Positions 1 through 43,777 of a stretch of DNA of 53,681 bases are shown piece by piece. Within the stretch, counting starts at the first letter, position 1. The number at the start of each line of letters is the position of its first letter. Where the stretch lies: IMG/VR virus record IMGVR_UViG_3300025645_000098, positions 1 to 53,681 of that record; one strand, 5' to 3'. Source of the DNA: a virus. Taxonomy: Duplodnaviria; Caudoviricetes. The notes under the pieces are model-generated. The model saw only the letters and a program-made list of their open reading frames with translations, was not told the DNA's origin and ran no database searches. Both the position numbers and the translations under genes were made by a program.

Positions 1-13
1 AAAGACTTTAAAT

Positions 14-86
14 GGGGATATGGTGAAACTGGCTATCATCGTTGACTTGCACTCAGCAGTTCCGAGTTCGAACCTCGGTATCTCCA
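14..86 (+). tRNA. tRNA-Ala(TGC)
   Basis: Acceptor GGGGATA/TATCTCC with G3:U70, anticodon arm GTTGA-CTTGCAC-TCAGC, T loop TTCGAAC. Confidence 0.93.
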
Positions 87-134
87 CATTTGGTGTTTAC
101 ATATATTTTTAGTATATTTGTAAAAAAATAAATT

Positions 135-251
135 ATGAATAAAAAATATCATTATGTTTATCTAATTGAAAGGATTGAAAAAGAAATTAAGAAATGTATT
201 GTAGTGTGTTCTAATTGTCATAGAAAAATACATTATAAAAATACATTATAA
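135..251 (+). pseudogene. Internally deleted HNH endonuclease remnant (38 aa)
   Basis: MNKKYHYVYLIERIEKEIKKCIVVCSNCHRKIH matches the C-terminus of the HNH ORFs at 16746 and 23326. Confidence 0.7.
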
Positions 252-257
252 AAATAA

Positions 258-291
258 ATTGTTGGTGTGGGTTTGAATCCCATCAGCAATA
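258..291 (+). other. tRNA minihelix (acceptor plus T arm only)
   Basis: ATTGTTG-GT-GTGGG-TTTGAAT-CCCAT-CAGCAAT; no D or anticodon arm. Confidence 0.45.
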
Positions 292-414
292 CAAACGATT
301 GATAATGTTGTTATTATCTTGTAACCACACTGGGCGGTTGAGCCAGATGGAAGGGCAAGGTAGACGTTTGAGATTGGGGTTATCATCTTACAACCAGCTC
401 TGATAACCTAATAT

Positions 415-489
415 GCTCCAGTCGTCTAATTGGCTTAGGACACCACTTTTTCAAAGTGGGCAATGTGGGTTCGAATCCCATCTGGAGTA
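415..489 (+). tRNA. tRNA-Glu(TTC)
   Basis: GCTCCAG/CTGGAGT acceptor, CCACT-TTTTCAA-AGTGG anticodon arm, GTGGG-TTCGAAT-CCCAT T arm. Confidence 0.92.
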
Positions 490-522
490 CTAAGTTTGCA
501 AACTGAGGTTTTTAATTACCTA

Positions 523-589
523 GGGTATATCGTCTAATTAGGTTAGGATAGCTCTGAGCAAGATATAGGTTCGATTCCTATTGTATTCT
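523..589 (+). ncRNA. tRNA-like element with truncated anticodon arm
   Basis: D arm and T arm (ATAGG-TTCGATT-CCTAT) intact; anticodon arm reduced to GCTCTGAGC. Confidence 0.55.
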
Positions 590-600
590 AAAAATTAAAT

Positions 601-673
601 TGGTTTATAGTCTAAAGTTAAGATACCATCCGTATCGGGGTGGAGATGTAAGGTCGGGTCTTACAAAAACCGC
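601..673 (+). ncRNA. Degenerate tRNA-like element
   Basis: Cloverleaf-like with CCATC/GGTGG stem, 8-nt loop and a non-canonical T loop GTCGGGT. Confidence 0.4.
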
Positions 674-755
674 TTACTGTAATGAGGTTTGACTGCTGTC
701 AAAGGATAGCTTCCTCACGTTAAACAAAAAAATGCTTATAGAAGTATAGGCGCCA

Positions 756-822
756 GGGATTGTATAGCAACGTGCAGAGGCGTTGAAATGGTTATGAGAG
801 ATTCGAGTTCTCTTCAATTCCA
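756..822 (+). ncRNA. Degenerate tRNA-like element
   Basis: GGGATTG/CAATTCC-A acceptor and TTCGAG T-like arm; core not canonical. Confidence 0.35.
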
Positions 823-828
823 CAAAAT

Positions 829-948
829 TGGTTAGTCGTATAAGTGGTTAATATATTCGGGATAGGGTTGTCGGTGGTTCGAATCCACTATTAAAATGGT
901 GACGTAATGCCGTACCGAGGGATGTTGGTTCGAATCCAACCTAACCAC
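829..948 (+). ncRNA. tRNA-like element with ~50-nt insertion in the anticodon loop
   Basis: TGGTTAG/CTAACCA acceptor, D arm, TTCGG/CCGAG stem, GTTGG-TTCGAAT-CCAAC T arm; the insert contains a second T arm GGTGG-TTCGAAT-CCACT. Confidence 0.55.
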
Positions 949-1070
949 TAAAATTAATATGTTATGAGCTTGGGAGCCACAAAAAGTTAGAAAGAATTGA
1001 ATCCACTAAAAAGAGGGTTGGTTCACGTAATGACAGGAAACTTAAAAAGTATTCTGAGAAGTTTAATAAA

Positions 1071-7621: not shown

Positions 7622-8692
7622 ATGCAAAATCAATTAAAACCAATTAAATCATTCTGGGAAAAGCCACAAGGTACAACTGGTATGGTTGGTGTCGGACTAT
7701 TAGTTTTCGGTGCTGGATATCTATTACTTAAAAATGCTGCATGGATTGCCGAAGCATTCTCAAACTTGACTTCAGCTGTATTCATGGGATTAGGTTTATT
7801 CACAATCTTCTGGTTGCTTAGTGATAAGAAATTTAGAACGTTATTGTGGTATTTCTATAAAGTGGGTATGGAAAAACTAACAAGCCTATTTATTGAGATT
7901 GACCCAATTGGAATCATGAAAGTTTATGTATCGTCATTAGTTGATAAAAGAGCTAATATGGATAAGCAATTAGGTAAACTTAAGCAAGAAAAGGGTAAGT
8001 TACAACGTAAGATAAGTGATGTAAATAAAGAAATACAAAAACTTATGTCTTTAGCATCTGCGGCCAAAAAACTAGGTACTCGAAAAGGTGATAGTCAAGT
8101 TGCTTTGAATACTAGAATGGCTGGTAGACGTGATGAAATGGTTAGAAAACTTCAAATATTACTTGTAAAAATCGAAGACCTTTATAAAAGAATGGATAAA
8201 ATGTATTTCTATTCTGGAATTATGATTCAAGATATTAAAGACCAAATTGAAACTATTGAATATGAAAGAAATGTAATTCATGCCTCTCACAGTGTAATGA
8301 AATCAGCACAAAGTATTATTGCTGGTAATAGTAGTGAAGCTGAGTTATTCGATAGAGCATTAGAATATGTTGCTGATGATTTAGGTGCTAAGGTAGGTGA
8401 AATGGAAAGATTCATAGACGTATCTCAAAACTTCATCGATGGGGTTGACCTAGAAAACGAAGTCTTCAAGGAAGATGGTCTTAAGATGTTAGAAGCATGG
8501 GAAGCTGGTAATAGTTTAGACTTCTTAAATGATAGTAGTACTGATTACTTACAAGTAATTAGAACTCAAATGTCTGGTACTGAAACTGTAGAAAAAGCTG
8601 AACCAGTTCTATTGAGTAGAACTTTTGAACAGGCTCCAGAAATTCCAAAAGGTAGAACTTTTGATTCTAACGAGAAAAACTTTTTCAAATAA
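7622..8692 (+). CDS. Membrane-anchored PspA/IM30-like coiled-coil protein
   Basis: Two N-terminal TM helices, then DP followed by a long heptad region. Confidence 0.55.
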   Translation: MQNQLKPIKSFWEKPQGTTGMVGVGLLVFGAGYLLLKNAAWIAEAFSNLTSAVFMGLGLFTIFWLLSDKKFRTLLWYFYKVGMEKLTSLFIEIDPIGIMKVYVSSLVDKRANMDKQLGKLKQEKGKLQRKISDVNKEIQKLMSLASAAKKLGTRKGDSQVALNTRMAGRRDEMVRKLQILLVKIEDLYKRMDKMYFYSGIMIQDIKDQIETIEYERNVIHASHSVMKSAQSIIAGNSSEAELFDRALEYVADDLGAKVGEMERFIDVSQNFIDGVDLENEVFKEDGLKMLEAWEAGNSLDFLNDSSTDYLQVIRTQMSGTETVEKAEPVLLSRTFEQAPEIPKGRTFDSNEKNFFK

Positions 8693-8765
8693 AATTTGGA
8701 TATCACAAATATTATTCTTATATTTGTAATCAATATAAACATTTAAAAACTTTAATTTAAAAATT

Positions 8766-19448: not shown

Positions 19449-19649
19449 ACTTGTTTTATTAGATATAATAACATATATTTGTAGTGTAATAAAAAAGTTG
19501 ATATTTTGATACGCAATTTGCGCTAAGAGGGAATCACTACCAAAATAAAAACTTTTTAAAAAAAAATGTAAAAAAAACTTGTTTATTAAAAAATAAGTTG
19601 TATATTTGCAGAGTAGTTTAAAAGCTACCAAACGTTCTTAAAAATATTG
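19449..19649 (+). promoter_or_regulatory. Tandem Bacteroidetes-type promoters plus boxA-like element
   Basis: ACTTG...TATATTTG at 19474 and 19601; GTTCTTAAAAATATTG at 19634. Confidence 0.65.
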
Positions 19650-19657
19650 AAAATAAT

Positions 19658-20472
19658 GGGGTGCTTATGCTCCTGTCTCTTCGGAGACTAAGATAAATCC
19701 AGCAATGGTATTTAAAGTGATGTCTATACAAGGCATTGCGTTATTGAGACTTCGGTTTTAGTAATCTATGTAAGCATATTGACTACGGGAAAGCATCAAG
19801 GGTCGACTGACTTAGATGACAAACCCACTTCCTAGCTTCGGGAAGTTGAGATAGAAATATCAATAGATGGTTAATAGATTTTGGTTGAAACGTGTAAAAA
19901 GCGGATAGGCTGATTTCATCATAATTTGTTATGGAATGTTCAATGTGACACTTCTTTAAGCTCTACTGGAAACAGTACCTTAAAAAGTTAACTGAGGTAA
20001 ATCTAAGTAATGAAGAAATGACGTGACTGTAAAAAGTTACAACGGGGTGTTGTAAGCTACACTGGTCCAAAGCCAGCACGCTTGTCAATCGCAAGACGCA
20101 TCCTGTAAGAGAGAGCATCGCTATTCTATGGTTGGTTAATAGCCAACGTTTTTAATGTAATAAAAATCAGAAAAGTAAAAGTTCTTGCGACCATGGATAC
20201 AAAATTAAGTTATGCTGCTGTAATATGTAGCTAGTGAAAGCTCACAAGGCTGAAACTAAAACGAAAAATAGGTATCGTTAGTAAGAGGGTAGTGCCTTTT
20301 CATCCTCACAAGGGAGCTAGGTAGTGAAATTGGTTTATATCAGTTCATGGTAAAAGAGTTCGCAGTCACTATAAGACTGTCTTAATAATGTCTACCAGAA
20401 CGAAAGTCGAGGTGTGTGCGCTAGGGAAACCAGATGTAAAATGATATTAATAACGCCCAACACTCAAGCGTT
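19658..20472 (+). ncRNA. Large structured RNA, ~815 nt, GOLLD-like candidate
   Basis: ORF-free and less AT-rich; many UUCG/GNRA-capped hairpins (GTCTC-TTCG-GAGAC, GATA-GAAA-TATC, TACTG-GAAA-CAGTA); next to tRNA-like elements. Confidence 0.65.
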
Positions 20473-20648: not shown

Positions 20649-20728
20649 GGGGATGTAGTCGGACCTGTTGTGAAGGCAGTGATTCCGTAATCGTACTGAA
20701 AATGCAACTGTGAGTGTTGCCATTTCCA
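20649..20728 (+). ncRNA. Novel tRNA-like RNA, copy 1
   Basis: GGGGATG/CATTTCC-A acceptor; GCAAC-TGTGAGT-GTTGC arm; covaries with copies 2 and 3. Confidence 0.75.
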
Positions 20729-20853
20729 CTAGAGGTTCTCATTTATCCAAAAATGTGTGGTGGAGCTACAAATGCCCAATGACCCAACCTTGAGTTGGTT
20801 GTTACGACAAGGAGCGTAATGTAAAACACTAGAGATTAGTCACTCTGGCGAAA

Positions 20854-20930
20854 GGGGATGTAGCCAGACCAGCATTGAGCTGGTATCTGTAATCATGCTG
20901 AAAATGCTACTGTAAGTGTAGCCATCTCCA
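20854..20930 (+). ncRNA. Novel tRNA-like RNA, copy 2
   Basis: GGGGATG/CATCTCC-A acceptor; GCTAC-TGTAAGT-GTAGC arm. Confidence 0.75.
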
Positions 20931-21023
20931 CTAAAAATATTCATAGTTTAGTTACTATGTTAATTACCTAACCCAGTGAAATGCTGGTTTATCAAATAAA
21001 TGCAGAGGGTAAATATTTTAATC

Positions 21024-21102
21024 GGGGGTATAACCAGACCAGTCATGCGACTGTGATTCTGTAACCAAGTTGAAAATGTTATTGTAAATGTAACTACCCC
21101 CA
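21024..21102 (+). ncRNA. Novel tRNA-like RNA, copy 3
   Basis: GGGGGTA/TACCCCC-A acceptor; GTTAT-TGTAAAT-GTAAC arm. Confidence 0.75.
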
Positions 21103-21194
21103 CTAAAAATATTGAGTTTAATTTTGCGGTTCAGTTCTCAATTTAAAAAAAACTAGGTGGGGTGTTAAAACCCCATCGTAAACGCCCAAAAAAA

Positions 21195-21383
21195 ATGAAT
21201 GATTATCAATTAGTAAATGAAAATATTTCAATAACAAGAAATTGGAATTTAAACGATTGGAGAGATTTCAGAAGTAGATATGAGTATTGGGAAACCAAAG
21301 ATAGGCTCATGAAACAAAAACAATATTTTGCCTTTAAGAAGTTCAAAAACAACGCTTTAAAGGCTTATATTAGAAGAAAATAA
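21195..21383 (+). CDS. Small hypothetical protein
   Basis: ORF MNDYQLVNE... with A-rich Bacteroidetes-type initiation region. Confidence 0.5.
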   Translation: MNDYQLVNENISITRNWNLNDWRDFRSRYEYWETKDRLMKQKQYFAFKKFKNNALKAYIRRK

Positions 21384-21474
21384 AAAAAAGATTAAAAAAA
21401 CATTGTATTTTAAGATACTTTTATGTATCTTTGAACTATATATTAATAACAGCGAAAGCTAACAATTAGAAATT

Positions 21475-21576
21475 ATGACAATTACAACGACATATACGAA
21501 ACAGTATCAACCGACAGGCGGGAAGCCTCAAGGTAAACTGGGTATGCGTTGTAACGAAGACCAAGAATTATGGTAA
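21475..21576 (+). CDS. Putative attenuator leader peptide (33 aa)
   Basis: MTITTTYTKQYQPTGGKPQGKLGMRCNEDQELW, between promoter TATCTTTG (21426) and a terminator. Confidence 0.65.
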   Translation: MTITTTYTKQYQPTGGKPQGKLGMRCNEDQELW

Positions 21577-21603
21577 TATAATTCTAGTCGATAGACAATA
21601 TAC

Positions 21604-21642
21604 AAAAACCCAGTTGATAAAACAATTTCAACTGGGTTTTTT
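21604..21642 (+). terminator. Intrinsic terminator (attenuator) before the tRNA array
   Basis: AAAAACCCAGTTGA/TCAACTGGGTTTTTT hairpin with T tract. Confidence 0.85.
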
Positions 21643-21674
21643 GCGTTTAATAGTTTCCAAATCTATAAAATTGG

Positions 21675-21690
21675 GTTCTTTGAAATATTG
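21675..21690 (+). promoter_or_regulatory. boxA-like antitermination element
   Basis: GTTCTTTGAAATATTG immediately before the first tRNA; resembles rrn boxA. Confidence 0.55.
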
Positions 21691-21699
21691 TATTTTTAT

Positions 21700-21771
21700 C
21701 GGGAATGTGTTGTAAAGGTTGCATACCGCTTTTGGAAAGCGGAGGTCAGAGTTCGAATCTCTCATTCCCGA
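21700..21771 (+). tRNA. tRNA-Pro(TGG)
   Basis: CGGGAAT/ATTCCCG acceptor; CCGCT-TTTGGAA-AGCGG. Confidence 0.88.
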
Positions 21772-21887
21772 AATAATCGAGTTAATCTACTTCCACGTAG
21801 TGATTATTGGAAACAGGTAATGCTGGCTAAAAGATTAACAAAAAAATTCCATTATCATAATTTAGATATTGAAGAAATGAAAACTAA

Positions 21888-21970
21888 CGGGAAGTGACCA
21901 AGGTAAAATGAAAAAAGGCTACGGGGCCTTGGATGCCTCAGTATGGTCGGTTCGATTCCGACCTTCCCGA
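21888..21970 (+). tRNA. tRNA-Pro(TGG), aberrant D arm
   Basis: CGGGAAG/CTTCCCG acceptor; GGGGC-CTTGGAT-GCCTC; expanded A-rich D region. Confidence 0.65.
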
Positions 21971-22030
21971 CGACCAGACTGTTATTAATTCATAGAAGGA
22001 GAAACGTATCCTAGCATAGAATTAAATTAT

Positions 22031-22103
22031 TGGGATGTGGTGTAATGGTAACACAGCTGGTTTTGAGCCAGCACGAGTGAGGGTTCGAATCCGTCCATCC
22101 CAT
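22031..22103 (+). tRNA. tRNA-Gln(TTG)
   Basis: TGGGATG/CATCCCA acceptor; GCTGG-TTTTGAG-CCAGC. Confidence 0.85.
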
Positions 22104-22171
22104 CAATAGTGTTCATTTTAAATGAGTGTTCAGTGACAATGAACAGAGCAAAATAATGAACATTCAAAAAT

Positions 22172-22253
22172 GGGGTACCGCCAACGTTGGAGAGTTGGAC
22201 CAGTCTGTAAAACTGGTGCGTAAGCTGAGTAGGTTCGAATCCTATGTGCCCCA
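22172..22253 (+). tRNA. tRNA-Tyr(GTA)
   Basis: GGGGTAC/GTGCCCC acceptor; CCAGT-CTGTAAA-ACTGG; variable arm. Confidence 0.9.
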
Positions 22254-22392
22254 CAAAAAGAGGATATTATTTGGTGAGTAACTTATTGAACCAGTTGTAC
22301 TGATATAAGTGAAGTGACAAGTAAGAAGATTGGATATGCCAATTGTACAACAACGCCTGACTTTAGCGAGTTTGGTAATCTTCCTCTTTAAA

Positions 22393-22501
22393 TGGCTGTA
22401 GTGAATAGGTCACCTTTCAATCATATTAATTTAGTTGAATGAGAATGGATATGTGAGCGTTACATCATATCGTCGGTTGGGTTCGAATCCCTTCGCAGCC
22501 G
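22393..22501 (+). ncRNA. Degenerate tRNA-like element with long core
   Basis: GGCTG/CAGCC closing helix and GGG-TTCGAAT-CCC T arm. Confidence 0.4.
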
Positions 22502-22664
22502 CTAAAATTTGAATTATGAAAATGATAGAATTAAAACATTCAGGTGAGATATCACCAGAAGCAAAAGAAAAATTAAACAAGAGGATTTTCAACCGTAATA
22601 AACGTTTGAAAGAAATGAAAGAAGCGTATTTGAATGGTGAATATGATGAAATGTTTAATAAAAT

Positions 22665-22737
22665 ACCCTCGTAGCAAACTGGTCGTAGGCAACTCCCTTT
22701 TAAGGAGTGGGGCTGGGTTCGACTCCCAGCGGGGGTA
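22665..22737 (+). tRNA. tRNA-Lys(TTT)
   Basis: ACCCTCG/CGGGGGT acceptor; ACTCC-CTTTTAA-GGAGT. Confidence 0.9.
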
Positions 22738-22792
22738 CTGGAAGTAGATGTCTTTATTAATTTAGCATCTAGGAAGAATAGAAATTAAATTT

Positions 22793-22866
22793 GCTCTGTA
22801 CGCATAAAAGGTGGTGCACTAGATTTGTAACCTAGAATAGAATCGGTTCGATACCGATACAGAGCT
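22793..22866 (+). tRNA. tRNA-Thr(TGT)
   Basis: GCTCTGT/ACAGAGC acceptor; CTAGA-TTTGTAA-CCTAG. Confidence 0.85.
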
Positions 22867-22931
22867 CAGAATGTGGAAAAACATCGCTCCCGTAATGCCA
22901 CGGCTCATGCATGAGTAACGGGAGACAAATT

Positions 22932-23021
22932 GGGTATGTATGCAAATTGGCTGAAGCGAGCAGACTGTAAATCTGTAGGTGTTGAAAGACCCCATTGGGA
23001 GTTCGAATCTCTCCATGCCCA
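22932..23021 (+). tRNA. tRNA-Tyr(GTA)
   Basis: GGGTATG/CATGCCC acceptor; GCAGA-CTGTAAA-TCTGT; long variable arm. Confidence 0.88.
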
Positions 23022-23195
23022 CTATACATGTAGAAAGCAATTATTAATGTCTAGCTTCAGCTTCGTGGAGAGGTCAGGCTACAATCTGGTGATAAGATTA
23101 ATTACCTTAAGGCAGATACGTTAGGAATTGTGAAATATTGGCCTATGGTGTAACTGGTTAACATATCGGCCTTTGACTCCGATGTGGTTATTTAT

Positions 23196-23269
23196 TGGGG
23201 TATCGTCTAGCGGTCTAAGACGCTTGGTTTTGAACCAAGAAAGCGTGAGTTCGAATCTCTCTACCCTAA
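23196..23269 (+). tRNA. tRNA-Gln(TTG), nested inside the split tRNA
   Basis: TGGGGTA/TACCCTA acceptor; CTTGG-TTTTGAA-CCAAG. Confidence 0.85.
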
Positions 23270-23325
23270 CTTTGAATTTTTATTGAACTTCAAAGAGTTT
23301 TTAGATATTTATAATAAAAGATATC

Positions 23326-23733
23326 ATGAAAAAAATTTGTACTAAATGTAAAGTAGAAAAAAACACTACTGAGTTCAATAAAAAAAATAGAAATAAAGAT
23401 GGTTTATCTTCACAATGTCGTGAATGTAATAAATTAAATTTAAAAGCTCATTATAATAATAATAAAAAGTATTATAAAGAAAGGAATATTAATAAACGTA
23501 ATGAGTTAAAAGAATGGTTTTTAGAATATAAAAAGACATTGAAGTGTAGTGTTTGTTCAGAATCTAGATATTGGGTTTTAGACTTTCATCATAGAGACCC
23601 TAATAAAAAAGAGGGGGCGATAAGTTATCTATTAGGTAGATATGGTAAAAATAAAGCCTTAAAAGAAATTGAGAAATGTGATGTAGTATGCGCTAATTGT
23701 CATAGAGATATACACCATAAAATGGAAAATTAG
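23326..23733 (+). CDS. HNH endonuclease
   Basis: CTKC, CREC, CSVC, VLDFHHRDP, EIEKCDVVCANCHRDIH. Confidence 0.9.
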   Translation: MKKICTKCKVEKNTTEFNKKNRNKDGLSSQCRECNKLNLKAHYNNNKKYYKERNINKRNELKEWFLEYKKTLKCSVCSESRYWVLDFHHRDPNKKEGAISYLLGRYGKNKALKEIEKCDVVCANCHRDIHHKMEN

Positions 23734-23803
23734 TGTGGGTTCGAGTCCCACTGGGCCATCAAAGAGGGAGGTGACACCAGACATCTTTAATAAATTGGTA
23801 TAA

Positions 23804-23892
23804 CCGAGAGTATCCGTAGCTAGGCGAACGGTCCAGCCTTTTAAGCTGATGAGTTAATGACTCCACCGTGGGTTCGATTCCCACCTCTCGGA
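23804..23892 (+). tRNA. tRNA with TTT (Lys) anticodon and long variable arm
   Basis: CCGAGAG/CTCTCGG-A acceptor; CAGC-CTTTTAA-GCTG; variable arm GAGTT-AAT-GACTC. Confidence 0.7.
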
Positions 23893-23901
23893 CAAATAAA
23901 A

Positions 23902-23986
23902 TCTCGTATAGGTGTAATGGAACATACTAGTTAAGCACGGTAGCTATAGGGTTACAGGAGGGGGGTTCGAATCCTTCATAGGAGAC
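23902..23986 (+). ncRNA. Degenerate tRNA-like element
   Basis: D-like arm GTGTAATGGAACAT and GGTTCGAATCC T arm; no canonical anticodon arm. Confidence 0.4.
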
Positions 23987-23990
23987 AAAT

Positions 23991-24076
23991 GCGGTGATAG
24001 TGTCAATTTGGAAAGTTCTAGAATAACACGCAGCCTTTCCACGGCTGAGATATAGGTTCGAGTCCTATTCACCGCT
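23991..24076 (+). tRNA. tRNA-Gly(TCC), enlarged D loop
   Basis: GCGGTGA/TCACCGC acceptor; CAGCC-TTTCCAC-GGCTG. Confidence 0.8.
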
Positions 24077-24091
24077 CTAAAATTTAATAAA

Positions 24092-24289
24092 ATGGATGAT
24101 TCAATGCAAATGGAATTATATCAATTCCTAATGAGAAACTTATCTATATCAGTTGATATGGGTACGGAATATGAAACTTATGGTGAGTATGCTACATGCA
24201 ACGTTACTTTAAGTTTAAGAAACCCAGAAACTGGTGAAATGGAAGTGATTGGAAACGCTTACGATTCAGTTTCAATAAATAGAGATTAA
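24092..24289 (+). CDS. Small hypothetical protein
   Basis: ORF between tRNA genes. Confidence 0.6.
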   Translation: MDDSMQMELYQFLMRNLSISVDMGTEYETYGEYATCNVTLSLRNPETGEMEVIGNAYDSVSINRD

Positions 24290-24308
24290 TTACCGTTAAT
24301 TACCAGAT

Positions 24309-24382
24309 GCACCTGTAGTTTAATAGGTTTAAAATTCTTCTGTGGTATGGAAGAGACCCCAGTTCGATTCTGGGTGGGTGCT
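24309..24382 (+). tRNA. tRNA-Thr(GGT)
   Basis: GCACCTG/TGGGTGC acceptor; CTTCT-GTGGTAT-GGAAG. Confidence 0.7.
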
Positions 24383-24458
24383 CAATGAGGAAAAAACAAA
24401 CCCAGCTTGAAGTACATAAGATACATTGGTTGAGAGCTGACTCAACCTTTCCTCAAAC

Positions 24459-24532
24459 GCAGATGACGCATAAGTGGTGGTGCGCCAGCCTTCCAAGCTG
24501 GAATAGACTCGGTTCGATTCCGAGTATCTGCA
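24459..24532 (+). tRNA. tRNA-Gly(TCC)
   Basis: GCAGATG/TATCTGC acceptor; CCAGC-CTTCCAA-GCTGG. Confidence 0.9.
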
Positions 24533-24543
24533 CTTTAGAATAA

Positions 24544-24626
24544 GCGGGTATCGTATAACGGTAGCGAAAGCGATATTATATTGGTCTTCCAAATCAAAGA
24601 TGAGGGTTCGATTCCCTCTACCCGCC
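24544..24626 (+). tRNA. tRNA-Gly(TCC), hairpin inserted in D loop
   Basis: GCGGGTA/TACCCGC acceptor; TTGGT-CTTCCAA-ATCAA; GC-GAAA-GC inside the D loop. Confidence 0.8.
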
Positions 24627-24665
24627 AATTTTAAAAATAGAATATTAATTTAAAAATACAATATT

Positions 24666-24824: not shown

Positions 24825-24830
24825 AAAATT

Positions 24831-24864
24831 AACCCTATCATTTATTTGGTGGGGTTATTTTTTT
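24831..24864 (+). repeat. 34-nt direct repeat (terminator/promoter unit), copy 1
   Basis: AACCCTATCATTTATTTGGTGGGGTTATTTTTTT, identical at 28503-28536. Confidence 0.85.
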
Positions 24865-24897
24865 TTAGTATCTTTGTATAAATATTAAATATAATAT

Positions 24898-25776
24898 ATG
24901 AAAAATTTTGCAATCTCAAACGAGAGAATTACAAAAAGAGAAACACGTTCAATGAATTCATATTTTAATGAATTGAATAAAATACCTTTATTAACATCAG
25001 ACGAAGAAGTTGAATTGGCAACTCTTAGTAAAAATGGTGATGAAAATGCTAGACAGAAATTAGTTAAACATAATTTAAGATTTGTTGTTAGTATTGCTAA
25101 AAAATATACTACCCCAAATATTAAGATTGAAGATTTGATTAATGAAGGAAATATCGGTCTTATCATTGCCTCTCAAAAATTTGACCCAACAAGAGGATTC
25201 AAATTTATTTCTTATGCTGTATGGTGGATTAGGCAACAAATGTCGGCTTATATTTCTCAAACTTCAAAAATTATTAGGACTCCTGATAATAAAAATAATG
25301 AATTGTATGCAATAAAAAAGTGTGTTAGTTTACTAGAACAAGAATTAGAACGTAAGCCATCTTATGATGAAATAATAGAAGTATTAGAAAAATCTTATTC
25401 TGAAGCCAGTATTAATTTCTTTCTCAATAGAGATAGAATTTTTACTAAATCATTAGATGAACAATTCACTGAAAATTCAGATTCGGGTTCGTTAATTGAT
25501 TCAATTAGGGATTCAAATAGTAATAACCCAAGCAATACTTTAGATTCAACTCATTCAATATATAATATAAATACATTATTAAATAAATTAAATGAACGGG
25601 AATCGTTGGTTCTTCAATTATTATTTGGTTTTAATGGTTATGAACCTAAAACTCCGAAGGAAATTGCTATTGAATTAGGTGTTACATCAACTTTAATTTT
25701 AGTGATAAAACGTAAAGCACTTAAAAAATTAAAATATAAACTACAAGGTAATGCCAGTTGGATGATTGAAAATTAA
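24898..25776 (+). CDS. RNA polymerase sigma-70 factor (Bacteroidetes RpoD-like, no region 1.1)
   Basis: LVKHNLRFVVSIAKKY, DLINEGNIGL, FDPTRGFKFISYAVWWIRQ, region-4 HTH. Confidence 0.93.
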   Translation: MKNFAISNERITKRETRSMNSYFNELNKIPLLTSDEEVELATLSKNGDENARQKLVKHNLRFVVSIAKKYTTPNIKIEDLINEGNIGLIIASQKFDPTRGFKFISYAVWWIRQQMSAYISQTSKIIRTPDNKNNELYAIKKCVSLLEQELERKPSYDEIIEVLEKSYSEASINFFLNRDRIFTKSLDEQFTENSDSGSLIDSIRDSNSNNPSNTLDSTHSIYNINTLLNKLNERESLVLQLLFGFNGYEPKTPKEIAIELGVTSTLILVIKRKALKKLKYKLQGNASWMIEN

Positions 25777-42115: not shown

Positions 42116-43777
42116 ATGAAAAACGAAGTATTTACAAAACAAAACGATAAGGTGGTAACATTACCTAGAAAGAGGTTATTTAAAACACCAAGATTATTAA
42201 TGGCTGATGCCTATACAATTGGTTCAGATAAGTTTCAATCAAAAGAAGCTAAAGATAGGTCTGATTACTACGTAACATTCCGTAGAGATTTACATACAGT
42301 GAATCCTACATTATATCCTAAAGGTGATAATAGAATCGTATTTGAAGGATTATCAGATATATTAGAAGAGTTATTTTATGAGCCAGTAACTCATGAAGAA
42401 ATTGATGAAGCTAAAGCATTTTTAGCTACATTTAAAGCAACAACACAAGGTTTCAAGGAGTATCAATTCCCTGAAGAAATGTGGAGAACTGTTGTAGATG
42501 AATTTAATGGTAGACCACCAATTAGAATTAAGGCAATGCCAGCTGGGTCAATCGTTTATCCAAACGAACCAGTAATACAAATTACTTCAATGGTAAAAGG
42601 TATGGGTGAATTGGCCGCATGGTTTGAATCAAGCTTACTTAAAGTTTGGGCTGTATCTGAAAGAATTACACAAAACGAACACTGGTTAGAGAAAATGAAG
42701 AACATGGTCAGAAAAATTGACCCAACATTAGATGAAACATTAATTCATTTATATGGTTCTTTAATGCTAACTGACTTTGGATGTCGTGCTGGAATTACAA
42801 ATCATGAATCAGAAATATTAGGTAAAGCTCACTTATATACATTCGGTGGTACTGATACCGTTGCGGGTGCATACCAAGCTTGGAAGAACGCTAATAATGA
42901 AGTTGTGGGTAGCTCTGTGAACGCTTTAGCTCACAGAAATATACAAGCCTATGAAGCTGAAAATGAAGCATATGAGGCTATGTATAATTCCGCTGAAGAA
43001 GGTGAAATCCTTTCAATGGTAGCTGATTGTTATGATTTCTATTATTCAGTTGAAAATGACTTATTGCCATTAGCACTAAGAAGTGTTAAAGAAGGTAATG
43101 GTAAAGTAGTTGTAGCTAGACCTGACTCTGGTAATCCAAAAGAACAAGTTCTATGGGTTTGTAGATTAGCAGTAAGAAATGGCTTATTCGAGACCAAAGT
43201 GATTAATGGTGTTGAATGGAAGTTCGGTACAACTCTTAAGTTCATTGAGGGTGATGGTATGGATTATGAAACAATGTGGGATATTATTGAAGCATTGATG
43301 GAAGCTGGATTCGCACCATACGGATGGGGATTATTCGGAGTAGGTGGTGGATTACGTAATGGTCTTAAGAGAGATAATTTATCAGCTAAATATGCTTTAT
43401 CAGCTAAAGGTGAGTATAAGACTGGTGTTGTTAAATTCTCTGACACGTTAGGTAAAACGACATTACCTGGTCCATTTAAAGTATTAAGAGATGCAATCTC
43501 ATTAGAAAATAAACAAACTATTGTGTTTGATTGGGAAGATGGTGACGATGCTATGGTGGTTTACTTTGATGGTTCAAATATCAATAAACCATTTGGTGAG
43601 GGTATGAATGATTACTTCTTAGACATTAGAAGTAGAATTAGAGAACAATGGGATATTATGCCATTAGATTTAACCAATGCTGATAATAGATACCCAGCAA
43701 GTGAAGCTATTCTTAATGAGCGTATTAGATTATTAAAAATATATGCACCTAAGAAGAATGTAAATAACTATAAATAA
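42116..43777 (+). CDS. Nicotinamide phosphoribosyltransferase (NAMPT/NadV-like)
   Basis: DAY, TDFGCR, GTDT, VADCYD, RPDSG, IEGDG, FGVGGGL. Confidence 0.88.
   Translation: MKNEVFTKQNDKVVTLPRKRLFKTPRLLMADAYTIGSDKFQSKEAKDRSDYYVTFRRDLHTVNPTLYPKGDNRIVFEGLSDILEELFYEPVTHEEIDEAKAFLATFKATTQGFKEYQFPEEMWRTVVDEFNGRPPIRIKAMPAGSIVYPNEPVIQITSMVKGMGELAAWFESSLLKVWAVSERITQNEHWLEKMKNMVRKIDPTLDETLIHLYGSLMLTDFGCRAGITNHESEILGKAHLYTFGGTDTVAGAYQAWKNANNEVVGSSVNALAHRNIQAYEAENEAYEAMYNSAEEGEILSMVADCYDFYYSVENDLLPLALRSVKEGNGKVVVARPDSGNPKEQVLWVCRLAVRNGLFETKVINGVEWKFGTTLKFIEGDGMDYETMWDIIEALMEAGFAPYGWGLFGVGGGLRNGLKRDNLSAKYALSAKGEYKTGVVKFSDTLGKTTLPGPFKVLRDAISLENKQTIVFDWEDGDDAMVVYFDGSNINKPFGEGMNDYFLDIRSRIREQWDIMPLDLTNADNRYPASEAILNERIRLLKIYAPKKNVNNYK

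Follow-up and report, generated by a model that had tools for sequence, protein, structure and literature searches.

The window, that is, the whole analysed stretch of 53,681 nt, represents part of the genome of a jumbo phage whose promoters are of Bacteroidota type. Its tRNA array is preceded by a leader unit composed of a promoter, a short open reading frame (ORF), mutually exclusive hairpins (1:2, 2:3 and 3:4) and an intrinsic terminator. Judged from sequence comparison and folding, this unit is very probably a ribosome-mediated (leader-peptide) transcription attenuator that gates the phage tRNA operon. All 33 related loci, namely the window, 5 from IMG/VR and 27 from metagenomes, show the same arrangement, tRNA array included. 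These loci represent 19 distinct sequences, and 12 representatives were aligned. The metagenome search pattern permitted synonymous variation and fixed residues 8–13 and 15–17 of the leader, so the conservation of these residues in the 27 metagenome loci is by construction. In the window, the unit and its surroundings comprise the following features:

21403–21433, + strand: Bacteroidota-type promoter (–33 TTG, 20-nt spacer, –7 TAnnTTTG; motif scan)
21451–21460, + strand: small 5′ hairpin P0 in the untranslated leader (folds)
21475–21576, + strand: leader ORF, 33 sense codons and stop, with A at –3 of the ATG
21482–21505, + strand: segment 1, the 5′ strand of stem P1, codons 3–11 (Ile, Thr, Thr, Thr, Tyr, Thr, Lys, Gln, Tyr; folds and pair counts of helix 1)
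21516–21528, + strand: apical hairpin of P1 (fold; helix 4, 87.5% of cells paired)
21536–21554, + strand: segment 2, the 3′ strand of P1 and 5′ strand of the putative antiterminator, with a copy of the terminator 3′ arm inside it (sequence, folds)
21564–21585, + strand: stop-codon hairpin with the stop in its loop, apex of the putative antiterminator (folds)
21601–21617, + strand: segment 3, the terminator 5′ arm with a short extension, partner of segment 2 or 4 (folds)
21604–21642, + strand: intrinsic terminator (3:4 and U tract; –19.0 kcal/mol; helix 5, 89.3% paired)
21677–21700, + strand: conserved 24-nt element adjoining the first tRNA, unique in the window (termed 'boxA-like' in the sequence-only reading)
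21699–24627, + strand: tRNA array (Pro, Gln, Tyr, Lys, Thr, Tyr, Gln, Lys, Thr, Gly; ARAGORN, Rfam)
24830–24857, + strand: terminator closing the unit (terminator scan)
24846–24876: next promoter, overlapping the closing terminator (motif scan)

When 50,697 phage records were searched with positions 21100–22300, only tRNA-sized similarities were obtained and no close relative was found. The leader pattern had 0 matches among 185,579 bacterial and archaeal species genomes, so that a host clue and a prophage copy are both absent. Three candidates from exact-word scans (L006, L007 and L008) were dropped as chance matches within unrelated coding sequence. A scan for the terminator alone, aimed at members with a different ORF, returned 4 known IMG/VR members and 5 contigs of one unrelated phage group.

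Promoter, reading frame and tRNA array

An earlier, sequence-only reading had claimed a promoter at 21426, a 33-codon ORF at 21475–21576 with unusual G/C-ending codons, a stretch of codons 2–21 for almost nothing but Thr, Tyr, Lys, Gln, Pro and Gly, and downstream tRNAs for exactly these amino acids. All of these claims were borne out. The promoter consists of TTG at 21403–21405 and TAnnTTTG at 21426–21433 with 20 nt between them, and agrees with the Bacteroidetes –33/–7 consensus, the source of our numbering, as given in PMC6847099. In the window, TTG-N18-22-TAnnTTTG matched 25 times (raw count), 21 times on the + strand and mostly just 5′ of genes. The E. coli-type consensus gave 31 sites versus 37.9 expected and is thus not applicable to this phage. 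A –7-like element is present in 12 of 12 aligned relatives; the TTG is not present in all of them (L033 is without it). The transcript is predicted to start at about 21438. One metatranscriptome run contained two 151-nt contigs (21204–21354 and 21351–21500) that carry no information on strand or ends; the latter spans the predicted start, with DNA carry-over as a possible source. Folds of 10 of the 12 relatives, and of 4 of 4 folded leaders of types B, C and D (described below), have a hairpin of differing sequence at the position of P0, a stretch that aligns poorly.

The ATG lies about 36 nt downstream of the predicted start, behind an A-rich stretch and with an A at –3. According to PMC6847099, Bacteroidetes work without Shine-Dalgarno sites and prefer A at –3, –6, –12 and –13. 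In this respect the unit is therefore as expected of an attenuator: close to the promoter lies a short ORF whose start codon is set in a region suitable for initiation. An ATG-started frame was present in 33/33 loci, with a length of 31–33 codons in 31 of them, and the remaining two frames over the leader are closed early. Start codon, frame and stop position are conserved across the loci: the stop lies 93–99 nt and the terminator 5′ arm 126–135 nt from the ATG throughout the family. The 3-nt insertions of L009 and L033 are both in frame. In L011 and L033, one inserted nucleotide puts segment 2 into a different frame, yet the nucleotides of segment 2 and the end of the ORF are retained.

Codon usage of 48 long ORFs identified the G/C-ending codons of the leader as rare: ACG makes up 5% of Thr, CCG 3% of Pro and CAG 8% of Gln codons, GGC 4% and GGG 11% of Gly, AAG 25% of Lys and CTG 1% of Leu codons. 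Codons 2–21 specify 6 Thr, 3 Lys, 3 Gln, 3 Gly, 2 Tyr, 2 Pro and 1 Ile, that is, 19/20 belong to the set of six amino acids. Among 32,898 stop-free 20-codon windows in six frames, scores of at least 16 were reached only by those overlapping the leader ORF; elsewhere the maximum was 15 per 20 codons, with a background fraction of 0.309. Substitutions in the sensor stretch between orthologues of this unit (type A) mostly stay within the set (Ile to Thr, Thr to Lys, Lys to Gln).

Downstream, 9 of 9 ARAGORN calls in 21699–24533 are Pro, Gln, Tyr, Lys, Thr or Gly tRNAs. A further tRNA at 22793–22866 was found by Rfam only and has the anticodon UGU (Thr). The array region further contains an HNH endonuclease gene, small ORFs and tRNA-like genes of irregular form. 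Family-wide, 200 of the 207 ARAGORN calls downstream of the leader (31 loci with any call) fall into the same set of six, as do 143 of the 149 calls in the 21 distinct call lists. In L011, the member that has diverged furthest, each of the six amino acids is represented by exactly one tRNA. At the start of the window, positions 1–950 hold tRNA-Ala, tRNA-Glu and tRNA remnants, for which there is no leader unit inside the window.

Alternative hairpins of the leader

The strong terminator claimed at 21604–21642 proved to have a 14-bp stem, a 10-nt loop, a U tract and the low folding energy listed above; a consensus scan had missed it only because its loops were limited to 3–8 nt. A terminator is found in 12/12 representatives and in types B, C and D, and thus an intrinsic terminator lies between ORF and regulated genes, as an attenuator should have. 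The ORF had also been said to contain a copy of the terminator 3′ arm and an extension of the resulting pairing, and both sequence and folds agree: the 8-mer at 21536–21543 is identical to 21630–21637 in the terminator 3′ arm and complementary to 21608–21615, 21549–21553 are able to pair with 21601–21605, and both pairings show up in folds. The fold of the 201-nt leader is far more stable than those of shuffled sequences (z = –7.24; 0 of 200 shuffles as good). Energies in the window are –22.8 kcal/mol for P1, –24.4 kcal/mol for the antiterminator domain and –19.0 kcal/mol for the terminator.

Among the 12 aligned representatives, 84.8% of cells in P1 and the terminator are paired versus 24–40% with the partners slid. 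Eight pairs changed on both sides, a number reached by 1 of 500 shuffles; two-sided changes affected 5 pairs in helix 1 (P1) and 2 pairs in helix 5 (terminator). The 2:3 helix is paired in 86.7% of cells versus 16–46% when slid, with one compensatory pair, which is not above shuffles, and mostly invariant columns. In L009, segments 2, 3 and 4 changed jointly, and in L011 and L033 the partner of the terminator 5′ arm inside the ORF is retained despite the frame-shifting indel. That is, the leader has the potential for a 2:3 antiterminator that excludes a 1:2 stem over the regulatory codons, as seen in folds, with covariation of 1:2 and one compensatory pair in 2:3.

We then considered how a ribosome would affect these structures. 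When segment 1 was covered by a ribosome and the transcript ended before segment 4, the lowest-energy fold contained 2:3 in 11 of 12 representatives. This result held at all four stall positions, in L009 only partly. The same footprint folding of types B, C and D gave a 2:3 antiterminator in 4 of 4 leaders. The stop codon is in or at the loop of a hairpin of differing sequence in 10/12 representatives. In the equilibrium fold of the complete leader, the terminator still forms even when a ribosome covers segment 1, so the switch would have to be kinetic, as in classical attenuators.

From these structures we infer translation of the ORF with an effect on read-through, the direction of the switch and its co-transcriptional operation. 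Transcription from the host-type promoter would start at about 21438, and the ORF would be translated during synthesis of the leader. In the absence of a ribosome, 1:2 (P1) would form and leave segment 3 free for segment 4, resulting in termination at 21642. If decoding were slow, the ribosome would stall on Thr, Tyr, Lys, Gln, Pro or Gly codons in segment 1 and the P1 loop (approximately codons 3–15). Segment 2 would then be free and 2:3 would pair, with the stop-codon hairpin at its apex; the terminator would be blocked and the polymerase would enter the tRNA genes. If decoding were fast, the ribosome would pass segment 2 and sit on the stop codon, at what would have been the apex of the antiterminator, and the terminator would form. 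This core of the sequence-only reading, stalling that frees an antiterminator and permits read-through into the tRNAs, finds comparative support in the conserved frame, the covariation of 1:2 and the terminator, the 2:3 potential, the lack of an intervening host-type promoter and the match of paralogous units to their clusters. Since the output would be the tRNAs that read the sensor codons, the unit would act as a negative feedback that matches tRNA supply to demand. A tiny gene whose codons call almost exclusively for the amino acids of the array implies that more tRNA is probably made only under slow decoding. Demand-driven feedback on tRNA supply is thus the most likely function suggested by the sequence.

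Paralogous units in a complete relative

A complete relative of 360,451 bp with 53 tRNA hits (G001) contains three units in addition to type A that share its build of promoter, 5′ leader, short ORF and terminator:

Type B unit of G001: precedes Asp, Asp, Glu, Phe, Ala, Glu, Glu
Type C unit of G001: precedes Cys, Cys, Val, Leu, Val, Val, Leu
Type D unit of G001: precedes His, His, Trp, Ser, four Asn, Ser, Arg, Ile

Counted by eye from the translated leaders, residues 2–21 include 16/20 from the own set in type A (19 in the window), 9/20 in type B (11 in the relative G003), 11/20 in type C and 15/20 in type D. Binomial P values for this enrichment range from 0.026, for the modest 9/20 of type B in G001, down to 3e-9. 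When leaders were paired with clusters in all 24 ways, the correct pairing scored 51 and was the best; the other 23 permutations scored 34 or less. The check proposed by the sequence-only reading, that leader composition tracks tRNA content, was therefore positive over four paralogous units of one complete relative. That is, with 19/20 codons in the window and four units matching their own clusters, the regulatory codons correspond to the regulated product, as expected of an attenuator. Substitutions in the sensor stretch mostly stay within the set in type B (such as Asp to Glu, Ile to Phe, Val to Ala), with exceptions such as Thr to Ile, and in type C (such as Leu to Val, Val to Cys), with exceptions such as Ser to Asp.

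The four leaders have little ORF nucleotide sequence in common except for a short motif of A and B. Each of the four ORFs contains the complement of its own terminator 5′ arm at codons 18–27, and the four terminators are different. In the duplex matrix, the type A ORF of G001 binds the type B arm 0.2 kcal/mol better than its own arm. Two ORFs and a promoter-like site separate the type B terminator of G001 from its tRNAs, which in G003 follow directly. Type C was found in G003, G004 and G005 and was not found in G002. The type D pattern search matched G001 alone, and when G002 and G003 were searched for this type at the DNA level, the matches were confined to the shared promoter sequence. One further candidate for type D (L049) was rejected as an ordinary gene promoter. 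Outside the four gated runs, G001 encodes tRNAs for Met, three for Phe and further ones for Arg, Ser and Ile. The Met tRNAs lie apart from the four operons, one of them directly behind its own promoter.

Four units over 19 amino acids look more like a general supply-and-demand control of the phage tRNA set than like the counter-defence sensor of depleted or cut host tRNAs that the sequence-only reading had proposed; such a control would include tRNA loss induced by defence without being limited to it. We lean towards an arrangement that may be called a 'tRNA-stat', with the balance somewhat in its favour: tRNAs for 19/20 amino acids would be held in four operons, each gated by a leader that lists its own amino acids, decoding speed would be measured per group and tRNAs in short supply would be topped up. 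This would be the first case of leader-peptide attenuation of tRNA genes, with a product that feeds back on its own sensor. The shortage could then arise from decay of host tRNAs during takeover or from cutting by anticodon nucleases.

Alternative explanations and known systems

The attenuator reading has to be weighed against other explanations. The synonymous sites of codons 8–17 are almost invariant although the search pattern let them vary, which could point to a function at the RNA level instead of, or besides, codon sensing. A structured non-coding RNA (either an sRNA or a cis element to which a factor or, T-box-like, a tRNA would bind directly) with an incidental open frame would fit this very strong conservation, which extends to the loops, as well as the high fold z-score, the covariation of P1 and the retention of segment 2 regardless of frame in L011 and L033. 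We nevertheless regard it as very unlikely. ATG, open frame and stop position are held in 33/33 loci despite indels, the enrichment for the amino acids of each cluster in four leaders is a property of a reading frame and not of an RNA, and substitutions in the sensor stretches are mostly conservative with respect to the set. In addition, no Rfam family, T-box included, matched the + strand of 21438–21642 at E values up to 1. The sole weak Rfam match over the leader (antisense_SR1, minus strand, E 0.17) was ignored. A T-box riboswitch proper, with stem I specifier loop and T-box sequence, is dismissed by the same Rfam result.

An equally slim chance falls to a control of the array by leader translation through another route, namely protection from Rho-dependent termination, or an effect on how the precursor is processed or how stable it is. 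Being long and untranslated, the array is a possible Rho target, and the conserved element 3′ of the terminator (21677–21700) may resemble boxA-type antitermination sites. The exclusive 1:2/2:3/3:4 geometry and the stop codon at the antiterminator apex are conserved, which hairpin competition needs and for which such a route would have no use.

Least probable of the three is an ordinary small gene with its own terminator, followed by an array that is expressed separately, either from a phage-specific downstream promoter or by constitutive read-through. A hairpin identical to the window terminator does end a protein gene in the unrelated phage group (5 contigs), the type B tRNAs of G001 are preceded by the promoter-like site, and the phage encodes a sigma factor (24898–25776), for which promoters could lie inside the array. 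Between 21434 and 24845, however, there was no match to the host-type promoter motif in the motif scan. The conserved 24-nt element between terminator and first tRNA is another point in favour of separate expression: it is kept in 10/12 representatives (one of them shortened) and is exact in 4 IMG/VR contigs. Yet it adjoins the tRNA, leaving no room for a start site, and L011 and L033 are without it; a counterpart after the B, C and D terminators was not seen by eye. The element is thus also not part of the core switch. Furthermore, the complement of the terminator arm inside the ORF recurs in four paralogues with four terminators, neither the leader peptide nor the adjacent small ORFs had a Pfam match, and for four peptides that list the amino acids of the adjacent tRNAs a role other than sensing is hard to imagine.

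Leader-peptide attenuators are a classical means to control amino-acid biosynthesis operons, as in trpL, hisL, thrL, leuL, pheL and ilvL. The attenuator reading assigns the phage unit the same elements: a promoter-proximal short ORF rich in regulatory codons, 1:2/2:3/3:4 hairpins and an intrinsic terminator before the regulated genes. The pheL leader is the subject of PMC3082878. Several amino acids are sensed together in thrL and ilvL too, whereas the phage unit would sense six or seven at once. It also differs from the biosynthetic attenuators in the stop codon within the apical loop of the antiterminator and in being phage-borne, present in four paralogous copies and equipped with a Bacteroidota-type promoter and translation start. 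Since the regulated genes are tRNAs and not enzymes, the product would act directly on the sensor.

Attenuation of a component of the translation apparatus is known from the pheM leader before the pheST operon. A histidine leader before hisS paralogues is described in the accessible part of PMC2965389, in which 0 passages matched 'tRNA gene', 'tRNA operon' or 'upstream of tRNA'. These leaders resemble the phage unit in that leader-peptide attenuation acts on the translation apparatus, but they control the aminoacyl-tRNA synthetase for one amino acid. T-box riboswitches likewise measure tRNA status and choose between terminator and antiterminator; unlike the phage unit, they bind uncharged tRNA directly, without an ORF, and control synthetase and amino-acid genes.

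The usual view is that tRNA genes are controlled at the level of initiation, by growth rate and stringent response, rather than by attenuation. In E. coli, the tRNA-Phe genes pheU and pheV may carry a leader resembling an attenuator. Our literature search for a leader-peptide attenuator before tRNA genes found none. As far as we are aware, it is also largely unknown how phages time and dose the tRNAs they encode. If the attenuator reading is true, a classical mechanism would have been put to a new use, with a leader peptide reading out the tRNAs it gates and a direct feedback on decoding capacity, and the four units would form a natural set of orthogonal codon-group sensors. The arrangement (promoter, short ORF, terminator and tRNA array, with an ORF composition equal to the array identities) would provide a simple signature for searches of other phages and of cellular tRNA arrays. 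It also bears on the current debate about the purpose of phage tRNAs (codon usage, host shut-off, or escape from defences that cut tRNAs), as the wiring of the sensor would mean that the array is wanted when decoding is slow.

Phage tRNA islands have been found beside GOLLD or ROOL RNAs (bioRxiv 10.1101/2024.12.08.627333); the accessible part of that source does not mention tRNA regulation. Similar to these islands, a GOLLD-like RNA, whose match is below the Rfam gathering score, lies about 1 kb upstream of the array in the window and in L002.

The leader unit and its relatives

A leader-peptide attenuator had been proposed ahead of the tRNA array from the sequence alone. On checking the sequence, we found every element listed in that sequence-only reading in place:

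21426-21433, + strand: promoter -7 element (sequence check)
21475-21576, + strand: leader ORF (sequence check)
21604-21642, + strand: terminator with a 14-bp stem, a 10-nt loop and a U tract, -19.0 kcal/mol (folding)

The 8-mer at 21536-21543, suggested to form an antiterminator, has the sequence of a stretch of the terminator 3' arm and complements 21608-21615. The leader codons described as unusual are rare in the phage (ACG 5%, CCG 3%, GGC 4%, GGG 11%, CAG 8%, AAG 25% and CTG 1%), and 19 of the 20 codons 2-21 specify Thr, Tyr, Lys, Gln, Pro or Gly, as had been claimed. When 32,898 stop-free 20-codon windows in six frames were scored for these six amino acids, counts of at least 16 occurred only in windows overlapping the leader ORF; the maximum elsewhere was 15 (background 0.309). 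The array contains nine tRNAs called by ARAGORN, and all are for the six amino acids, in agreement with the earlier assignment. One further tRNA of the array, detected by Rfam only, has a UGU anticodon and reads the leader codons ACA and ACG. The leader RNA is structured far above shuffled sequences (z = -7.24).

A syntenic IMG/VR contig, reached through the downstream sigma factor (protein only 43% identical), carries a nearly identical leader. Word and pattern scans gave a set of 33 loci with such a unit (type A): 5 come from IMG/VR, 27 from metagenomes, and one is the window itself; three further matches were chance hits and were removed. The 33 loci represent 19 distinct sequences, of which 12 were aligned and seven, near-duplicates of included ones, omitted. 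An ATG-started frame is present in all 33 loci, and the ORF is 31-33 codons long in 31 of them (one is cut by a contig end, and another carries an additional ATG upstream in the same frame). Spacing is tight, with 93-99 nt from the ATG to the stop codon and 126-135 nt to the terminator 5' arm. The remaining two reading frames contain early stops. Residues 8-13 and 15-17 were set by the metagenome search pattern, so their conservation in the metagenome loci follows from the search itself; start codon, length, stop position and flanking residues were free.

Alternative folds of the leader RNA

Four strands of the leader (segments 1 to 4) can pair as 1:2 (hairpin P1), 2:3 (antiterminator) or 3:4 (terminator). 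Nearly all of the 12 representatives share one fold of the free leader: a small 5' hairpin, P1, a stop-codon hairpin and the terminator. P1 is a long imperfect hairpin with its 5' strand (segment 1) over codons 3-11 and its 3' strand (segment 2) over codons 21-27. The stop codon lies in or at the hairpin loop in 10 of the 12 representatives, with a different hairpin sequence each time.

In the 12-sequence alignment, 84.8% of the cells of P1 and the terminator are paired, versus 24-40% with the partners slid by 1-3 columns. Eight of these pairs have changed on both sides, a number reached by 1 of 500 shuffles. For the 10-bp 2:3 helix the corresponding values are 86.7% versus 16-46%, with only one compensatory pair, which is not above shuffles. 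This one pair is nevertheless telling: it comes from the relative L009, where the matching position is changed in the terminator 5' arm, the 3' arm and segment 2 alike. In two other relatives, L011 and L033, a 1-nt insertion shifts the reading frame of segment 2 and the segment-2 nucleotides are retained; the constraint there is therefore on the RNA, not on the peptide.

We then simulated stalling at four points (A site at codon 6, 9, 12 or 15), masking a ribosome footprint of 28 nt and ending the transcript directly before segment 4. At all four positions, the lowest-energy fold of 11 of the 12 representatives has the 2:3 antiterminator topped by the stop-codon hairpin; in L009 the antiterminator formed only partly. 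In the window, the energies are -22.8 for P1, -24.4 for the antiterminator domain and -19.0 kcal/mol for the terminator. At equilibrium the full-length leader favours the terminator even with segment 1 masked, and the choice must therefore be co-transcriptional, as in classical systems. A ribosome arriving at the stop codon would occupy the antiterminator apex, which would explain the conserved position of the stop codon in this loop.

Four paralogous units and their tRNAs

Whether leader composition tracks tRNA content had been proposed as a check of the model, and four paralogous units in the virus record G001 bear the relation out. Type A arrays are uniform in tRNA content: at the 31 loci with any call, 200 of the 207 tRNA calls are for the six amino acids (the other seven being three for Glu and four irregular), or 143 of 149 when the 21 distinct call lists are counted. 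The most diverged type A member has exactly one tRNA for each of the six. G001, to which L009 belongs, is a complete, terminally repeated record (360,451 bases) and has 53 tRNA hits, clustered on a single strand. Three more of its clusters share the promoter and the first leader bases of type A, and in each a short ORF and then a terminator come next; the sequence of the 5' hairpin differs.

tRNAs preceded by the other leader units of G001
Type B: Asp, Asp, Glu, Phe, Ala, Glu, Glu
Type C: Cys, Cys, Val, Leu, Val, Val, Leu
Type D: His, His, Trp, Ser, four Asn, Ser, Arg, Ile

Counted by eye from the translations, residues 2-21 include own-set amino acids at 16/20 positions (type A in G001; 19/20 in the window), 9/20 (type B in G001; 11/20 in another record, G003), 11/20 (type C) and 15/20 (type D), where 3.1-6.2 are expected (binomial P from 0.026 to 3e-9). 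The true assignment of leaders to clusters scores 51, the best of the 23 other permutations 34. Types B and C were found again in other records with tRNAs directly 3' of the terminator, and type D is known from one sequence. Between orthologous leaders, the majority of substitutions in the sensor stretch remain within the own amino-acid set.

The four types have four different terminators, and each ORF carries the complement of its own terminator's 5' arm at codons 18-27. In a duplex matrix every terminator arm pairs best with its own type, with a near tie for the type A ORF of G001 (-8.9 with its own arm, -9.1 with the type B arm). Under masked folding, types B, C and D behave as type A. In G001, two ORFs lie between terminator and tRNAs in type B, with a promoter-like site directly before the tRNAs, and one ORF in type D. 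Some tRNAs of G001 are outside the four gated runs. One with a CAU anticodon (L044, reverse strand, ~8589-8700) begins ~10 nt after a host-type promoter with no leader between; thus the translation-initiating amino acid would escape stalling-based control.

Proposed control of the tRNA operon, and its surroundings

The predicted leader unit has the short ORF, matching codons, competing hairpins and terminator by which an attenuator is recognised in sequence, and we consider it likely that the tRNA operon is gated by a leader-peptide attenuator. Slow decoding of codons read by the array tRNAs would turn the operon up; fast decoding, or an untranslated leader, would turn it down. The phage unit is proposed to work in the same way as trpL, hisL, thrL and ilvL. 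Unlike these, the phage units would gate tRNA genes and sense six or seven amino acids each; they also place the stop codon differently and form a phage-borne, four-fold paralogous set. An attenuator-like leader may precede the E. coli tRNA-Phe genes. In the literature searched, which covered subscription journals thinly, we found no description of a leader-peptide attenuator before tRNA genes, phage or cellular; a broad survey of premature terminators (PMC2965389) contains no passage on tRNA genes. A counter-defence purpose, as first suggested for the gating, is possible but unsupported. The four units cover 19 amino acids, which suggests that they control tRNA supply in general.

A motif scan with the host-type consensus revealed no further match between the leader promoter and a terminator at 24830-24857. 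A conserved 24-nt element (21677-21700), the putative boxA-like site of the sequence-only reading, touches the first tRNA, so that a start site would not fit between them. L011 and L033 lack the element, and by eye no counterpart was seen after the type B, C and D terminators; it is a type A accessory. One metatranscriptome run gave two 151-nt contigs over 21204-21500, which show no ends and may be of DNA origin.

The window, a whole IMG/VR virus record of 53,681 bases, has an estimated completeness of ~15%, which identifies it as part of a larger, jumbo phage genome; almost all genes are on the + strand. The motif TTG-N18-22-TAnnTTTG recurs ahead of genes (25 raw matches, 21 on the + strand, most directly 5' of ORFs). 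It corresponds to the Bacteroidetes -33/-7 consensus quoted in PMC6847099, which makes a host from this phylum probable. A scan for the E. coli-type consensus showed no enrichment (31 sites versus 37.9 in shuffles). A phage sigma factor gene (24898-25776, PHROG E 2e-59) lies directly 3' of the tRNA unit, and a nicotinamide phosphoribosyltransferase gene at 42116-43777 (PHROG E 6e-51).

Upstream of the leader, a 1.7-kb ORF-free stretch contains a GOLLD-like RNA (20042-20470; 65.9 bits, E 6e-16, below the Rfam gathering score of 150), which lies behind two host-type promoters (19451-19481 and 19579-19608). In the syntenic L002 the match is stronger (97.4 bits), and GOLLD is reported near phage tRNA islands (bioRxiv 10.1101/2024.12.08.627333). 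Between this RNA and the leader are three tandem copies of an ~85-nt RNA (20649-20735, 20853-20937 and 21023-21109), for which Rfam gives no match at E up to 1. The fold predicted for all three is Y-shaped, with a 7-bp closing stem and two arms, and 8 of its 26 pairs still form although both partners differ between copies.

Within the array, an HNH endonuclease gene (23326-23733, PHROG E 5e-32) and an intact tRNA-Gln (23196-23270) appear, by eye, to lie within another tRNA gene, whose putative 5' half lies near 23140-23187 and whose T arm and acceptor 3' strand lie at 23735-23761. Three irregular tRNA-like genes (21880-21975, 24011-24070 and 24544-24627) have long insertions in the D-arm region and were missed by ARAGORN; Rfam detects two of them weakly as tRNAs (26.8 and 27.8 bits), with anticodon loops read by eye as UCC. 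Several called tRNAs in the relatives' arrays are likewise oversized. Directly at the 3' end of the first tRNA begins a stretch that weakly matches the HDV-like ribozyme family RF02682 (21772-21838; 25.2 bits versus a gathering score of 44, E 0.08-0.16). In an unrelated phage group (L037-L041), the same terminator stem arms with a different loop serve as an ordinary terminator for a protein gene, and no tRNAs follow. A second tRNA cluster of the window (1-950), with tRNA-Ala (14-87), tRNA-Glu (415-490), several T-arm-like remnants and an HNH-like short ORF (135-251), resembles the end of a type B cluster; the corresponding leader would be located upstream of the window start.
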